DNA of 64,000 nucleotides from Escherichia phage MX01. The position numbers and the translations under genes are program-made. Location: the sequence record NC_031934.1. One strand, given 5' to 3'. The notes below the pieces were generated by a model, which worked only from the letters and a program-made list of their open reading frames with translations, made no database searches and was not told the DNA's origin. Positions within the stretch are counted from its first letter, which is position 1, and each line of letters opens with the position of its first letter. Of the stretch, positions 10,934 to 61,659 are shown in pieces.

Positions 10934-11414
10934 CAAAGAGATTTCCATTCCTAAATTGGGTCTTAAACACCAGAAATTGGTTAAAGATGAAAAGGACCCT
11001 TACAAGGCCCTCTATATGACAATGGAATCCATTTGTAAAGGACTGTCTGCAGCAGAAACAGATTTTGCTGCTTTACACCTTTTAGAATTCAACGGACGAT
11101 TAAAAGAAAAAGTAACTAAAGATGGATTCACATATAATTTAAATGACCTTTATATTTGCCAACGACTTGAATTCCAGTTCCAAGGTAAGACATTTAAATT
11201 TAAATCACACGAACCATTTCAAACATTTGGTCCTGTTGATAGTGTACTACAATCTCTTTATCTTGGTGATGATGTACCAGATTTTCTGGATATGCCTGCC
11301 TTTGTTGCTACATGGGCCGACGATATAACTTCTACTGTAGCTATCCCTGGTCCTAATGGTCCTATCAAAGGATTGCTTAAAATCATGGATATCTTAAATG
11401 AAGAACGAATCTAA
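10887..11414 (+). CDS. 28: Baseplate hub distal subunit gp28
   Basis: Start set at internal ATG with GAAGG Shine-Dalgarno; 175 aa as in T4; overlaps the end of gene 27. Confidence 0.7.
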
Positions 11415-23596: not shown

Positions 23597-23875
23597 TTAG
23601 TCATGGATTCTATTATAAGCCACATCAGCCAAAAGCAAGTCTAATCGCTTATGATAAGAGAACACAAATCTCATTCGCCCATCAGATTTGAACTTGGACA
23701 TAAAGTGGACATAAATGAATCCCTGTTCGACGCATTCGCGCCAAACAGGATGGTCTTTAGCCGGATTTACATCAAATGAGTAATCATGATTCACATGACG
23801 AATAAACTGGTTTACATGACCATAATCCATTGTAGTGGTAGGACCATAGTCTGAAATTGTATGAACTACAAACAT
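23597..23875 (-). CDS. Hypothetical protein (92 aa), 30.1-position
   Basis: ORF starting 1 nt after the upstream stop (TAAtATG). Confidence 0.45.
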   Translation of the reverse strand: MFVVHTISDYGPTTTMDYGHVNQFIRHVNHDYSFDVNPAKDHPVWRECVEQGFIYVHFMSKFKSDGRMRFVFSYHKRLDLLLADVAYNRIHD

Positions 23876-23876
23876 A

Positions 23877-25371: not shown

Positions 25372-25658
25372 TAGAACCTCATCTGAAAGCCATGTGATTT
25401 AACATTACCGCCGTAGATGTCAGACGTATTGACTTCACGGGCAGCGCTCGGGTCGATATTGATATCATGGTTGAGCTTAGTGATTGCTAGGGTATCACGA
25501 CCATTAACAGTACGGAATTCTACCGGGCATACAACATCGGCGTAAGCCTTAATAGATTCACGAGTGGGCTGTTTGTCGGCAGGAACGTCTTTACCCGCTT
25601 TAGAGAAAACAACTTCACAGAAATTTTTACGAGTATCGAAATAAGTGGTCATAAACAT
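25371..25658 (-). CDS. Hypothetical protein (95 aa)
   Basis: ORF with GAGGA Shine-Dalgarno and an upstream hairpin. Confidence 0.5.
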   Translation of the reverse strand: MFMTTYFDTRKNFCEVVFSKAGKDVPADKQPTRESIKAYADVVCPVEFRTVNGRDTLAITKLNHDINIDPSAAREVNTSDIYGGNVKSHGFQMRF

Positions 25659-25698
25659 AATATTTTCCTCAAAGGGGCCGAAGCCTCCATTTTTAAGA

Positions 25699-26064
25699 TT
25701 AGATATCGAATTCGTTCAGAACTACATCAAAGATTGCTTCCAGGTGTTCAGGTTTAGCTCGGTTGCTCAGGATGTGACGAATCCAAGTTTTAACCAGAAG
25801 CTTACGATTAACACCGTTCCAGCAAGGATGGGTACCTAAATCACGTTGACGGAAATCATCATCTAAAGCGATTTTAAAAGTAGAACCTTCCATTGTGATT
25901 GAAACCGTAATACCATTTTCAAAGCGCATATAAACGTAGTTAGGAGTCATGCACTGTTCGATTTCGCACACCGCGCCGTTGTTGTGTTTCCACAGGCAAA
26001 TAACTTCAGAAGAACCAGCGATACCGTTAGAAACATATTTACGTTCGAAGTTGATGTAGTTCAT
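25699..26064 (-). CDS. Hypothetical protein (121 aa)
   Basis: ORF preceded by GGAGAATAAAATG and the shared leader. Confidence 0.5.
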   Translation of the reverse strand: MNYINFERKYVSNGIAGSSEVICLWKHNNGAVCEIEQCMTPNYVYMRFENGITVSITMEGSTFKIALDDDFRQRDLGTHPCWNGVNRKLLVKTWIRHILSNRAKPEHLEAIFDVVLNEFDI

Positions 26065-26105
26065 TTTATTCTCCAGTTTGTTTTCGTATTATTTGGTACA
26101 GGTCT

Positions 26106-26134
26106 ATAATAACACAACCTGTACCAAAGTAAAA
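26106..26134 (-). promoter_or_regulatory. Candidate early promoter (variant -35)
   Basis: Minus-sense TTTTAC, 17-nt spacer, TATTAT, then the conserved leader. Confidence 0.35.
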
Positions 26135-26137
26135 CAT

Positions 26138-26470
26138 TTATTTCACAACATTCCAATTTTTCATATCAAGTTTACCAACTTTTTTCATCTGAGCAATCAG
26201 ACGTTCAGCGCGTGTACGGGCATTAACATAATAGAATTCACCATTTTTGTTTTCTTCAATACGACCAGTAATTACAGTTTTCAGTTCATAAATCCAACCT
26301 GTAAAGAAGTTGTGAAGCTCGATGGTGAACGTGAAATCAGTACCCGTACCTTCAGTTGTTTCAACTTCGATGATATCACCTTCAACTGCAGTCAGGACCC
26401 ACATGGTTTCTTGATATCCGCCGTTGAAACATTTAGCTTTAACAGATGCATTCAGATTTACAGTTTTCAT
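26138..26470 (-). CDS. Hypothetical protein (110 aa)
   Basis: ORF preceded by the same leader and Shine-Dalgarno as the neighbouring gene. Confidence 0.5.
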   Translation of the reverse strand: MKTVNLNASVKAKCFNGGYQETMWVLTAVEGDIIEVETTEGTGTDFTFTIELHNFFTGWIYELKTVITGRIEENKNGEFYYVNARTRAERLIAQMKKVGKLDMKNWNVVK

Positions 26471-26511
26471 TTTATTCTCCAGTTTGTTTTCGTATTATTT
26501 GGTACATGTCT

Positions 26512-26540
26512 ATAGTATCATGCCTACCGGAGATGTACAC
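26512..26540 (-). promoter_or_regulatory. Candidate early promoter (variant -35 GTGTAC)
   Basis: Minus-sense GTGTAC, 17-nt spacer, TACTAT, conserved leader. Confidence 0.4.
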
Positions 26541-26568
26541 CATTTTTTAAAGATTTAGAAACAAAAAT

Positions 26569-26586
26569 GGGACTCCGAAGAGTCCC
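26569..26586 (-). terminator. UUCG-tetraloop hairpin
   Basis: Minus-sense GGGACUC-UUCG-GAGUCCC, perfect 7-bp stem. Confidence 0.6.
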
Positions 26587-26591
26587 ATAAC

Positions 26592-26753
26592 TTATGCCTG
26601 AGGCTTACCAAAGCAAGCAGCATCTGCACGCAATACTGCACGAGCACGAGCTTGAAGCTTATCAACTACCTGATTGATACGCTTGTTGGACGCACGCTTG
26701 TAACCAGCGCGTTTAGAGGTACCGTCAACTACTTTAACTTCTTTCTTAGCCAT
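26592..26753 (-). CDS. Small basic protein (53 aa)
   Basis: Hand-translated MAKKEVKVVDGTSKRAGYKRASNKRINQVVDKLQARARAVLRADAACFGKPQA; not in ORF track; terminator hairpin immediately downstream. Confidence 0.35.
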   Translation of the reverse strand: MAKKEVKVVDGTSKRAGYKRASNKRINQVVDKLQARARAVLRADAACFGKPQA

Positions 26754-27020
26754 TTTAAATCTCTTAAATTAGAATGCAGGACTTATTGGCGTTGCCTGCG
26801 CAAGCCCTCAAGGGGAACATAGGTTTCGGATATTTAACGACAGGATAACCATAAACCTCGTCATCATACCAACCACGACTTAGACAGATAACCTTTTTCT
26901 GACGCGTGATAGTACAAAATACATTCAAGAGGTACACCGTAAAATTGTCGGGGCGGTACTTCTAAAACATACCGATTCGTAAATCGATAATCAGACAATT
27001 CGACGGCTCCTCGATTTAAC

Positions 27021-27269
27021 TTACTTCAGGGTAATAATAAAATGACGTACTGCTTTACGAGCTGCTGAAGCCAAAGGCTTAGAAAATTTCAGTTCATCTT
27101 TAGCTTCCAGTTCAGCAGCCAGAGTAGCCTGTGCTGGGTTCAGATGTTTGAAATAACGCAGGATTTCCAGTGCTTCGGCTTCAACATCAATAGATGCACC
27201 GTAGTTTTCGTGACCGTTGTTCCAAGCGTTGCGTTGCAGTTCAAGAGCGTGATTCAGATGTTTGTTCAT
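27021..27269 (-). CDS. rIII: rIII lysis-inhibition accessory protein
   Basis: 82 aa; position next to gene 31 and sequence MNK.LN.AL.LQR.AW.NGHE...YFKHLNPAQA consistent with T4 rIII as recalled. Confidence 0.7.
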   Translation of the reverse strand: MNKHLNHALELQRNAWNNGHENYGASIDVEAEALEILRYFKHLNPAQATLAAELEAKDELKFSKPLASAARKAVRHFIITLK

Positions 27270-27407
27270 TTTAGTTTCTCAATTCGAGATAAAGATTGGC
27301 GAGCACGTTCGTCTCAGTATTTCCAGCTGAGTTGTATCTCGCCGTATGGAAGAGGCTAACCCCATACACCAACCGAAGTTCTGTATGACATCAACCTCTT
27401 CGTAATT

Positions 27408-27731
27408 TTATTTATACAGGCAAGGAATTGCTTTATAATGACAGGTAACGAATTTTTGTTTAATTTCTTTAGGTTGTTTAATACCTAATGCAACCAACGG
27501 ATGAGGCACGTTAGCAATCTTACCCACAGGAAGTGGAGTCAAATCACCTACTTCACAAAAATCTTCAGGGACATCAGGTCCTACAGAATAAATTTCACAA
27601 AGTTCAGGGATTTCACCTTGATGAAGTTTGCCAATAACGATACCAGATGCAGTAGTTTCTTCATCGCCAGCTTGTTTTGGTTCGGAAACGAGAATAACAT
27701 ATTCTCCGACCGCTTTAATAGGAAGTTCCAT
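27408..27731 (-). CDS. 31: Co-chaperonin gp31 (GroES-like)
   Basis: 107 aa; [18 protein letters not shown] and C-terminal [17 protein letters not shown] match T4 gp31 as recalled. Confidence 0.9.
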
Positions 27732-27789
27732 ATTTAATCCATATTGTTTTGTTGATAGATTAATAATAACACGCTATTCTTAAAGCATA

Positions 27790-28089
27790 TTACAGGACAA
27801 GCAGAGTTTCGGTCTGAAGGCCGTTAACAGAAATCAGCTTATCGAAACGGAATGAACGCCAATCATTAACCTTGGTATCAAATACTCTGATATAATTAAC
27901 AGGTTCTTTATTGGCTTCCGGCCCAGGGGCCTGGACTTCTTTATACGGAAGCAGGTCTAAGTCACGGGTACAAGTCATGCGACGGGCACTACCATCGGCT
28001 TTTTCAAACAGGACTTCGTGAAAACCAACAGACAAAATAGTCTTGACTTTTTCACGGAGACGAATTGTTTCTTGTTCAGTTAAAATCAT
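27790..28089 (-). CDS. Hypothetical protein (99 aa)
   Basis: ORF between cd and 31. Confidence 0.5.
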   Translation of the reverse strand: MILTEQETIRLREKVKTILSVGFHEVLFEKADGSARRMTCTRDLDLLPYKEVQAPGPEANKEPVNYIRVFDTKVNDWRSFRFDKLISVNGLQTETLLVL

Positions 28090-28091
28090 AA

Positions 28092-28325
28092 TTATTCCAG
28101 AATAGTTTTGATAGTGGTTGCGTTACGCTCTTTTAGAGCTCTTAATAGGTTATGACAATTATCAAGAATAGGCACCGTTTTATATTTCATTTCGGCGCGA
28201 ACCCAATCAGATTTATAGTACGATTTCCATCGAGAGAAAAAGTACTTTTTATATTCTACTGAATAGGCTACTAAGCTTTCACCTTTTGAGTTCAGACCTG
28301 AAAATTTAACTAGACGAAATTTCAT
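28092..28325 (-). CDS. Hypothetical protein (77 aa)
   Basis: ORF between cd and 31. Confidence 0.45.
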   Translation of the reverse strand: MKFRLVKFSGLNSKGESLVAYSVEYKKYFFSRWKSYYKSDWVRAEMKYKTVPILDNCHNLLRALKERNATTIKTILE

Positions 28326-28870
28326 TATTCACCACAATAGTTTTGAATTGATTCCCAGTTCAGAGAACGGAGACCTGTACGATTATACTGGATAACTTCT
28401 ATGCCTGATTCACGGAGGATATCGTCCCATCCTTCAGGATTTCGGTCATATAGCTCAGCATAAACCAATGTTTTAATTCCAGACTGCGCAATAGACTTAG
28501 CACAATCTGCACATGGAGATAACGTCACGTACATCGTAGCGCCGTCAATAGAACTTCCGGTACGAGCTGCAAACAAAATGGCATTCAGTTCAGCATGGAT
28601 TTCATTTTTGGATGACCATGCTGCATGAGCCATACGGTGTTCTTTAAGAAGAACGGATTTGTGCGACATCCGCGCTGGGTCATACACAACACGGGTCCAG
28701 TCTTGTTCCACAGCGTGGTCACAACAGTTAACACCACCGGATGGTGAACCGTTATACCCTGTAGAAATAATGCGGCCATTCTTTTCAATAACCGCGCCCA
28801 CTTTCCATGAACAACATTTTGATTCCTGAGAAATCAGATATGCAATCTGAAGGTATGTGCTTGCTTTCAT
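28325..28870 (-). CDS. cd: dCMP deaminase
   Basis: 181 aa; zinc-binding cytidine/dCMP deaminase motifs HAELNA and PCADC. Confidence 0.9.
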   Translation of the reverse strand: MKASTYLQIAYLISQESKCCSWKVGAVIEKNGRIISTGYNGSPSGGVNCCDHAVEQDWTRVVYDPARMSHKSVLLKEHRMAHAAWSSKNEIHAELNAILFAARTGSSIDGATMYVTLSPCADCAKSIAQSGIKTLVYAELYDRNPEGWDDILRESGIEVIQYNRTGLRSLNWESIQNYCGE

Positions 28871-29716: not shown

Positions 29717-29995
29717 TTAAATTGCTTCGACAACTACCGTTTGTTTCTGGAAATCCATTTTGCATGAAATAGCCAAAATGTGGTTATCAATTTTAAATGG
29801 AACGATTGCAAATGCTGCACCGGGCGTGAGTTGAACAGTGATTGCATCAACTGCATCCGGGAACATGATTTCCAGAATAGCAGACAAACGACCGTGCACT
29901 TTTAGTTCAGTCGACACGTCGACGCTTTCGTATAGATAATCAGATACAATCTGACTAAAAACTACTTTAACAATTTCAGAATAAGTAGGGAACAT
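29717..29995 (-). CDS. Hypothetical protein (92 aa)
   Basis: ORF in cd.x region. Confidence 0.45.
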   Translation of the reverse strand: MFPTYSEIVKVVFSQIVSDYLYESVDVSTELKVHGRLSAILEIMFPDAVDAITVQLTPGAAFAIVPFKIDNHILAISCKMDFQKQTVVVEAI

Positions 29996-30002
29996 AATTA
30001 CC

Positions 30003-58375: not shown

Positions 58376-58413
58376 TTTGTATCTCCATTTCACTCTATTG
58401 TTTTGATAGGTCT

Positions 58414-58442
58414 ATAGTATCATGTTTAAAGCAGAAGTAAAC
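58414..58442 (-). promoter_or_regulatory. Early promoter for motA
   Basis: Minus-sense GTTTAC, 17-nt spacer, TACTAT, conserved leader. Confidence 0.55.
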
Positions 58443-58465
58443 ACTTTTTTCACCAAACCCAAAAA

Positions 58466-58485
58466 AGGAACCCGAAGGTTCCTTA
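58466..58485 (-). terminator. UUCG-tetraloop hairpin
   Basis: Minus-sense AAGGAACC-UUCG-GGUUCCUU, perfect 8-bp stem. Confidence 0.6.
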
Positions 58486-58587
58486 CTTTTTAAAGTGAGC
58501 TGCTATTAAACCTATAGCTAAGCCTGTTGCCAGGCCTAGAATAACAGCAAAGATACAGAGTAACAAGAACTCGACTCCAAGGCTCAT
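58483..58587 (-). CDS. Small hydrophobic membrane peptide (34 aa)
   Basis: Hand-translated MSLGVEFLLLCIFAVILGLATGLAIGLIAAHFKK; start overlaps the gene 52 stop (ATGA). Confidence 0.3.
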   Translation of the reverse strand: MSLGVEFLLLCIFAVILGLATGLAIGLIAAHFKK

Positions 58588-61194: not shown

Positions 61195-61435
61195 CAGAAA
61201 TAGCCATCAGTTCATCAACGGTAAGGCATTGCACACTAGGTCCTACACAAAAGCGCTTAGTTGAATCATAAAGGTCTGTAGCATTAACAGGTTGTAATTC
61301 GGTCCCAACTTGTAAAGGAGAAATGCGAATCAGTTGTTGACCATTATGTAATACAAAGCTCTCACCAACTACCACATCTTTAAAAAGTTTCATAATATTT
61401 TCCTCAGAAATTAAAGAATACACGTACATGGTCAA
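61181..61435 (-). CDS. Hypothetical protein (84 aa)
   Basis: ORF preceded by GAGGAAAATATTATG. Confidence 0.5.
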   Translation of the reverse strand: MTMYVYSLISEENIMKLFKDVVVGESFVLHNGQQLIRISPLQVGTELQPVNATDLYDSTKRFCVGPSVQCLTVDELMAISVDAE

Positions 61436-61514
61436 TCATAAAAACGATTGGGAAAATGCTCAATACAACCAATAACACAAACATGTTCCAAATTGCTTTA
61501 AGTAAGTTTTTCAT
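61404..61514 (-). CDS. Small hydrophobic peptide (36 aa)
   Basis: Hand-translated MKNLLKAIWNMFVLLVVLSIFPIVFMIDHVRVFFNF; GGAG Shine-Dalgarno; early promoter upstream. Confidence 0.3.
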   Translation of the reverse strand: MKNLLKAIWNMFVLLVVLSIFPIVFMIDHVRVFFNF

Positions 61515-61540
61515 AATCATCTCCATTAGTTGATAGGTCT

Positions 61541-61569
61541 ATAATATCATGATTAATGGAGATGTATAC
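61541..61569 (-). promoter_or_regulatory. Candidate early promoter (variant -35 GTATAC)
   Basis: Minus-sense GTATAC, 17-nt spacer, TATTAT, conserved leader. Confidence 0.4.
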
Positions 61570-61659
61570 TGATTTATACCAATTTCCACAACAATAAACT
61601 AAAACATACGCAAATCACTGGGATACAGGCCATCCAAATAAGGCACCACATTTTGCTAC

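Follow-up and report, generated by a model that had tools for sequence, protein, structure and literature searches.

Co-varying RNA structures in the two spacers flanking rIII of a Dhakavirus T-even phage, probable untranslated regions of the 31-rIII-30.9 mRNAs

We have analysed the two long spacers that flank rIII on a 64-kb stretch of phage DNA (the window, meaning the whole of that stretch) and find that both carry conserved helices whose arms co-vary between genera of T4-like phages. The most probable reading, to which we give a probability of roughly two in three, is that both spacers are transcribed but untranslated parts of the 31-rIII-30.9 mRNAs, containing promoters together with RNA structures that act in cis. 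The helices are situated between promoters, stop codons and ribosome-binding sites, show two-sided compensatory changes across genera and include G-U pairs fitting the gene-sense strand, an assignment that is made because these pairs would be A-C on the opposite strand. On these grounds the original prediction that the spacers might represent structured mRNA leaders is supported. The folding and covariance analysis with related phages which that prediction had called for yielded conserved, co-varying helices in both spacers, above shuffled or slid controls; the alignments consist of hand-picked segments of related phages, and part of the covariation signal reflects shared ancestry.

Results

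Genomic context and dimensions of the spacers

The 1.4 kb surrounding the spacers are 97–98% identical to the Dhakavirus genomes of Salmonella phage ABTNLsp5 and Escherichia phages IME341, C6 and IME08, and 92% identical to JS98. By this sequence identity the source of the window is a Dhakavirus, a JS98/IME08-like T-even phage. Genes 31, rIII and 30.9 are all encoded on the minus strand and are arranged, in the direction of transcription, as 31, rIII, 30.9 and a terminator at which the rIII-30.9 transcription unit ends:

27408–27731, minus strand: gene 31 (GroES-like co-chaperonin), stop codon at 27408–27410
27270–27407: gap B, between 31 and rIII, 138 nt
27021–27269, minus strand: rIII, 82 aa, AUG at 27269, 87% identical to T4 RIII, PHROG annotation 'lysis inhibition accessory protein'
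26754–27020: gap A, between rIII and 30.9, 267 nt
26592–26753, minus strand: gene 30.9 homologue, 53 aa, homologous to T4 gp30.9, AUG at 26753
26567–26588, minus strand: canonical intrinsic terminator 3' of 30.9, with a 9-bp stem, UUCG loop and UUUUUGUUU (consensus scan)

The extents originally proposed for the two gaps, 267 and 138 nt, are exact, and their length is indeed unusual. In a crude gene call of the 64-kb window (ATG-initiated ORFs of ≥45 aa) the median gap is 25 nt, gap A is the longest of 83 gaps and gap B the eighth longest. The same crude call leaves five more spacers of 208–251 nt (23626–23876, 29766–30002, 61430–61659, 10934–11142 and 58376–58583), which may hold small genes of <45 aa or further structured RNA. 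The T4 counterparts measure 244 nt (rIII-30.9) and 147 nt (31-rIII), and T4 records NC_000866 and AF158101 annotate only CDS features in both spacers. Across 40 related loci the rIII-30.9 spacer ranges from 120 to 416 nt, and gaps of such length are present in five other genera. Using blastn, gap A matched 774 phage records (Tequatrovirus, Mosigvirus, Dhakavirus, Gelderlandvirus and Mosugukvirus) and the window form of gap B was complete in only eight, all Dhakavirus. Related loci are referred to below, where needed, by L numbers.

Absence of coding capacity

The claim that neither gap contains a credible open reading frame is borne out, as only ORFs of 28–57 aa occur inside the gaps and their frames are broken by indels in relatives. 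In the H1 region of gap A, 1-nt indels separate close relatives (GACG-GG versus GACGAGG, CCUGGUC versus CCUGUC, and an extra A in the tail), domain A2 of the same gap shows a 5-nt indel between close relatives, and the R1 loop of IME08 in gap B carries a 1-nt deletion. The gaps are regarded as non-coding because close relatives carry these frame-breaking 1-nt and 5-nt indels. A protein-coding test of the gaps revealed no open frame kept among close relatives and no codon-position pattern of substitution; gap substitutions track base pairing and are paired across stems.

That the gaps conceal small genes, for example the 57-aa GTG-initiated ORF at 26764–26937 or a short ATGATG-initiated ORF over H1, is thus very improbable. 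A 'hypothetical protein' is annotated under the homologous stretch in several GenBank records and, when read by eye, a 34-codon ATGATG-initiated frame in T4 stops ∼10 nt before 30.9. However, the ATGATG frame, again by eye, comprises 5, 10, 16 or 19 codons depending on the phage and is missing from L026, it is base pairing, not codon position, that governs substitution, and the indels lie inside the frames of closely related phages, effectively excluding hidden ORFs.

Gap B: late promoter, hairpin B1, motif R1 and the rIII ribosome-binding hairpin

The gene-sense RNA of gap B folds at −47.7 kcal/mol (z = −5.0), with none of 200 shuffled sequences as stable, compared with z = −2.4 for the antisense strand. 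The elements identified, in the order in which they would be transcribed, are:

27409–27416, minus strand: T4-type late promoter TATAAATA, exact T4 late-promoter consensus, overlapping the gene 31 stop
27349–27401, minus strand: hairpin B1, ∼22 bp with a C(UUCG)G apex (MFE fold), beginning ∼2 nt after the predicted late start
27298–27343, minus strand: motif R1 in a short form that lacks the P3 arm, a nested inverted repeat
27277–27289, minus strand: rIII ribosome-binding mini-hairpin UCUC-GAAUU-GAGA (MFE fold), its 3' arm holding the rIII Shine-Dalgarno sequence

The sequence at 27416–27409 has the form that characterises late promoters, TATAAATA at about −10 upstream of a late gene, and it immediately follows the stop of gene 31 in each of the six phages that were compared, namely T4, JS98, Shf125875, STML-198, PM2 and the window. 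From the usual geometry of T4 late promoters, the late transcript is predicted to start near 27403. A published study names early, middle and late promoters for rIII of T4 (PMC9409239). In T4 only (L004 2617–2645, minus strand), GTTAAC-17-TAGTCT is readable by eye as an early-type promoter, not conserved in the window or JS98, whose transcript would start inside R1 and lack the 5' strand of P1; it may correspond to the 'most proximal early promoter' of PMC9409239.

Hairpin B1 differs between phages. JS98 retains the apical half on a basal stem of GGAUUGGCUAA/UUAGCUAAUCC, as opposed to GAAGAGGUUGA/UUAGCCUCUUC in the window, which represents several two-sided changes, Shf125875 has a short plain hairpin on the same base (GAAGAG/CUCUUC), and T4, PM2 and STML-198 have unrelated hairpins at this position. 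The stem is followed by CAUACGG and not by a U-tract. The arms of the rIII mini-hairpin switch jointly across genera between UCUC/GAGA and CCUC/GAGG.

The nested repeat that had been pointed out in the shorter gap (gcgag...ctcgc enclosing ctcag...ctgag) is present at 27298–27343 and proves to be a real, recurrent motif, R1. In its full form R1 consists of P1 (6–7 bp of variable sequence), a bulged U, an A-U and a C-G pair, AAC, P2 (CUGA/UCAG), P3 (6 bp with a bulged G and a GAAA loop), (A/C)GAAC and the 3' strand of P1. The window has P1 as GGCGAG/CUCGCC, AU-AC-AAC, P2 as CUCAG/CUGAG with loop CUGGAAAUA, then ACGAAC-GU; P3 is missing while P1, P2 and both junction sequences are kept. The alignment of 11 distinct sequences has 98.9% of its cells paired, with two-sided changes in 8 of the 19 pairs, whereas sliding the partners by 1–3 columns reduced pairing to 32–40%. 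No shuffle reached the observed percentage paired, number of two-sided-change cells or covariation score, and 6 of 500 reached the observed count of double-change pairs. A covariance model built without window-type sequences recovered the window R1 at 27347–27294 (34.2 bits, E = 9e-7) as its single match in the 64 kb. The pattern TACAAC...GAACGTG occurs once in the window, against 0.04 expected by chance, and in 28 of 49 related loci.

R1 lies upstream of rIII in Tequatro-, Mosig- and Dhakaviruses and upstream of 30.9 in L027 (Enterobacter phage PG7), L032, L033, L036–L038 and L044, in either case always ∼30 nt before the start codon. It is present in one copy per genome and, in IMG/VR, is confined to T4-like contigs; a looser pattern, CTACAAC..GAACGTG, gave only chance matches there, none of which scored with the R1 model, and a search of 185,579 bacterial and archaeal genomes with the strict pattern gave no match. 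The unpaired UACAAC and GAACGUG are invariant while P1, P2 and P3 co-vary, so that R1 has the layout of a riboswitch or operator, conserved unpaired nucleotides and co-varying helices upstream of a start codon. Inspection of the aligned loci established no conserved alternative pairing between R1 and the ribosome-binding hairpin. The R1 stem is followed directly by AAUCUUUAUCU rather than by a run of U. Phages that lack R1, for example STML-198, have a GC-rich hairpin followed by UUUUAUU at the same position before rIII, and in L039 the P1 stem bears a plain loop only. A hammerhead-like reading (CUGA...GAAA) was rejected on inspection since CUGA belongs to the paired part of P2, where covariation also yields CCGA. 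Readings as a K-turn, UAA/GAN or box C/D motif do not fit the sequences.

Gap A: rIII 3' domain and 30.9 leader

The fold of gap A as a whole is no better than those of shuffled sequences (z = −1.06), so that the support for its structures is comparative only. The elements, again in the order of transcription, are:

26937–27006, minus strand: domain A2 in the rIII 3' UTR, 70 nt (alignment A6)
26909–26936, minus strand: weak candidate early promoter for 30.9, TGTACC-16 nt-TACTAT
26885–26901, minus strand: hairpin H0, CAGA-AAAAGGUUA-UCUG, read by eye only
26822–26862, minus strand: hairpin H1 (26862–26839) and conserved tail, extending to 26822 (alignment A3)
26805–26815, minus strand: H2, CCC-UUGA-GGG
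26788–26807, minus strand: GC-rich stem of the original prediction, GGGCUUGC/GCAACGCC, overlapping H3
26776–26799, minus strand: H3, GCAGG/CCUGC
26761–26773, minus strand: 30.9 ribosome-binding region, UCU-AAUUUA-AGAG, in which only 3 bp are possible in the window

Domain A2 is formed by a 13-bp long-range helix (27006–26994 with 26949–26937) enclosing an 8-bp hairpin (26989–26970) capped by U(UACG)A, of the UNCG type. In 12 aligned sequences 98.8% of cells are paired and five pairs show two-sided changes, compared with 22–62% pairing in slid controls. A2 is assigned to the gene-sense strand because of an invariant G-U pair and a further pair that is U-G in 7 of the 12 sequences.

H1 consists of a GACGAGG/CCUGUC stem, a conserved 11-nt loop, UUUAUGGUUAU, and a conserved tail, GUUAAAUAUCCGAAACC. 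Among 18 loci from several genera, alignment pair 11–33 is UA in 10, AU in 7 and GC in 1 and pair 12–32 is CG in 12 and GC in 6, neither being broken in any locus; these two stem pairs contribute 8 and 6 double changes. Overall pairing is 88.7%, as against 27–58% when slid, and RNAalifold recovers the same stem, the consensus fold being weak at −2.3 kcal/mol. In L034–L039 the H1 module directly follows the rIII stop. Other readings of H1 were discarded. Late-promoter function (GUUAAAUA) is incompatible with the tail variants CGUAAAACACCC and CGUUAAUUUUAC, which TATAAATA does not tolerate; a sigma-70 or MotA promoter using TATGAT has, by eye, no consistent −35 or MotA box at the right spacing; and a loop-tail pseudoknot, for which 7 bp are possible in PM2 and L025, is impossible in the window and L026.

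The claim of a GC-rich hairpin in the longer gap (ggcgttgcc...gcaagccc) holds in part. The stem exists at 26788–26807 and is 93.9% paired, but it changes on one side only and overlaps H3, whose four-pair core, CAGG/CCUG, is fully paired (100%) and includes one pair with a two-sided change. Within gap A, the A2 domain and H1 are better supported than this hairpin. H2, H3 and the GC-rich stem could together form an H-type pseudoknot. In H0 a two-sided change to CAGC/GCUG is visible by eye in L015 and L026.

The candidate 30.9 promoter resembles the TTTACW...TAYWAT early promoters of the window and has the same layout as TGTACA-16-TACTAT (26539–26512), which precedes the gene at 26138–26470; it lacks an A-rich element upstream, and the corresponding stretch is affected by deletions in T4 and T6. 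The 30.9 ribosome-binding site of most other genera reads UCUCC-N4-6-GGAAGA, in which the Shine-Dalgarno sequence is paired with an upstream CUCC, and the arms of the ribosome-binding hairpins co-vary, at rIII and, in most genera, at 30.9.

Searches for known families, repeats and terminators

Rfam 15 gave no match above noise inside either gap when window positions 25500–28800 were searched with E up to 10, the only overlap being wcaG on the plus strand at 16.8 bits against a gathering score of 42, and nothing was detected in the gaps of eight related loci with E up to 1. Four relatives contained no tRNA or tmRNA according to ARAGORN. A scan of the 64-kb window with 11 module patterns, allowing up to 2–4 mismatches for the longer ones, produced no convincing copy outside the locus, and with the modules unique within the window a dispersed-repeat nature was rejected. 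On the gene strand, neither gap contains an intrinsic terminator by scan, the only one being at 26588–26567 after 30.9, and no canonical promoter and terminator pair enclosing a module or small transcript was found. The literature searchable here, which does not extend to older T4 work, yielded no published description of these RNA structures. The gaps and the T4 rIII promoters belong to that older literature, and the RNA structures are best filed as cis-acting UTR elements of phage mRNAs.

Discussion

Structured untranslated regions acting in cis

Combined, the positions of the helices suggest how the two spacers may function. The late promoter TATAAATA on the gene 31 stop would give rise to a transcript that begins with the long hairpin B1, which could serve as a 5'-terminal stabiliser of late rIII mRNA; a long hairpin at the start of an mRNA is known to shield it from 5'-end-dependent decay. 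R1 and the ribosome-binding mini-hairpin would most probably act as a gate setting the transcriptional read-through and translation that reach rIII. Attenuation at B1 or R1 is uncertain because neither has the run of U that defines a terminator. A2 is probably a 3'-end or stability structure of rIII mRNA, and H0–H3, together with the possible early promoter, would constitute a 30.9 leader ending at the 30.9 ribosome-binding site. Control in cis would thus be exerted on mRNA stability, read-through and translation.

The conserved single-stranded R1 internal loop, UACAAC/GAACGUG, and the conserved H1 loop and tail suggest a specific partner, and would be compatible with an element responding to a protein or ligand or with an RNA acting in trans. 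Tentatively, and with considerable doubt, R1 and possibly H1 with its tail may represent an undescribed, phage-specific class of regulatory RNA in which the invariant loop is bound by a defined partner to gate rIII, or 30.9 in other genera, the rIII-30.9 spacer being a landing pad for RNA modules. If so, candidate partners of R1 would be ribosomal protein S1, RIII, the very basic gp30.9, another phage or host protein, or a small molecule, and the modules of the landing pad would include the ∼140-nt multi-helix RNA of about 400 phage genomes described below. RIII has recently been linked to ribosomal protein S1 and RegB.

Across genera gp30.9 comprises 53–59 aa and is very basic, with an invariant core of SKRAGYKR...N.R...RAR.V; it has no Pfam match or solved relative and its PHROG is of unknown function. 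It is always encoded downstream of a structured spacer and, as a speculation, is a candidate RNA-binding partner.

Alternative explanations

The same modules might instead act in trans, R1, H1 with its tail and A2 being stable small RNAs or processing products that serve, for example, as decoys for an RNA-binding protein or nuclease of host or phage. Conservation of loops and junctions while stems co-vary, as expected for a specific binding partner, is in keeping with such a role, as is the fact that modules keep their sequence while changing position and order between genera and that the homologous gap of relatives holds a self-contained multi-helix RNA of ∼140 nt. We nevertheless consider it unlikely, as none of the modules lies between a recognisable promoter and an intrinsic terminator, of which the single canonical example follows 30.9, R1 is always found just before a ribosome-binding site and no Rfam small-RNA family is matched.

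It is quite unlikely that the gaps are mosaic recombination joints of the PeSL (promoter-early stem-loop) type at the DNA level whose hairpins are ordinary terminators or relics of indels. T4-like genomes have been shown to contain PeSL cassettes (Comeau et al. 2014, PMC4122927), which mediate modular shuffling. Mosaicism is pronounced here: gap A is 96.3% identical to that of Mosigvirus L005 (Shigella phage Shf125875) compared with 84.9% for the flanking rIII and 70.2% for 30.9, which points to a recent exchange of the spacer alone between the genus of the window phage and Mosigvirus, modules are inserted, deleted and reordered between phages so that their order differs between genera, and in some phages plain loops replace the apical parts of B1 or R1 on the same basal stem. 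The compensatory changes in P2 and P3 around an invariant internal loop, however, point to selection on folded RNA, the stems have no canonical U-tracts, and the modules are not dispersed, none being found elsewhere in the window and R1 being single-copy in each genome.

Comparison with known systems

Several described systems share features with these spacers. Like PeSLs, which are short non-coding modules of an early-type promoter and stem-loops located between non-essential early genes and linked to insertions, deletions and reshuffling between related phages, gap A shows mosaicism; it also has a weak TTTACW-like candidate, TGTACC-16-TACTAT, that adjoins stem-loops which are not terminator-like. 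PeSLs, however, occur in many copies per genome and have stem-loops that terminate transcription effectively, whereas the present modules are single-copy and bound to one locus, have no U-tracts and possess conserved loop and junction sequences and a multi-helix architecture. PeSL cassettes of T4-like phages have reportedly also been treated by Arbiol and colleagues in 2010.

The T4 genes e, soc and I-TevI have hairpins at their ribosome-binding sites, with a late promoter inside the hairpin such that the late transcript is unable to form it. Likewise, the Shine-Dalgarno sequence of rIII lies in a small hairpin with co-varying arms, as does that of 30.9 in most genera, but the late promoter here lies ∼130 nt upstream and late transcripts would still contain the hairpin. 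The E. coli ompA leader carries a stabilising stem-loop at its 5' terminus, and B1 similarly starts only a few nucleotides from the point at which late transcription is predicted to begin; B1 differs in being much longer than needed, with an apical part that is conserved within a Dhakavirus subgroup. R1 resembles an intrinsic terminator or attenuator in occupying the site at which STML-198 and other T4-like phages have a GC-rich hairpin-UUUUAUU upstream of rIII and in having a U-rich stretch after P1. That stretch is nevertheless interrupted or spaced (AAUCUUUAU in the window, GAGUUUUAAU in T4), and the gene-strand scan of gap B was negative. Finally, the leader of T4 gene 32 contains a pseudoknot, and an H-type pseudoknot whose third loop is A-rich can be drawn for the 30.9 leader. 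The two leaders have no sequence similarity, the 30.9 leader has no Rfam match and its pseudoknot is only a possibility; we know of no autoregulating protein for it.

Implications and further elements of the spacer

T4 is a reference phage for post-transcriptional control, and yet both spacers are represented by CDS features alone in its records and match no Rfam family. The covariation-supported structures adjoin rIII, a gene of lysis timing, and offer mutable targets for studying the dosing of rIII and gp30.9. The mosaic pattern indicates that non-coding RNA modules, and not genes alone, are exchanged between T4-like genera.

In other phages the rIII-30.9 spacer contains a self-contained multi-helix element of ∼140 nt, CGGCAAGUGCAUG...ACCCGGAACC...GCUAACGGUGUGCAACAGAUAAGAG, which is found at 405 places in 404 phage records, one per record in all but one. 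The phages infect Klebsiella, Escherichia, Enterobacter, Citrobacter, Erwinia and other hosts, and the element is present in L003 (JS98), L014 (1582–1730), L022, L025, L027 (PG7), L029 and L032–L039, where it is inserted at the place that the candidate promoter and H0 have in the window (about 26870–26915). Of its 43 predicted pairs, 20 show two-sided changes. In the records it is unannotated or a 'hypothetical protein'; it is absent from the window, has no Rfam, tRNA or tmRNA match, and looks like an undescribed structured RNA.

A further small module, CCCAC-stem-UGUACG-stem-GUAAC, is likewise absent from the window and occurs in the 5' part of the rIII-30.9 spacer in PM2 (L008), just after the rIII stop in L037 and L038 and just before 30.9 in L029; a stem in it shows two-sided changes (CUCUG/CAGAG, CAUG/CAUG, CUUUG/CAAAG). 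Beyond the spacers, the early-type promoters TTTACT-16-TATTAT (26106–26133) and TGTACA-16-TACTAT (26512–26539), both on the minus strand, precede 30.7-like and 30.8-like genes. Each is then followed by the same ∼40-nt 5' leader, gtaccaaataatacgaaaacaaactggagaataaaATG, and the two promoters with their shared leader therefore form a repeated promoter-leader cassette of the PeSL kind.
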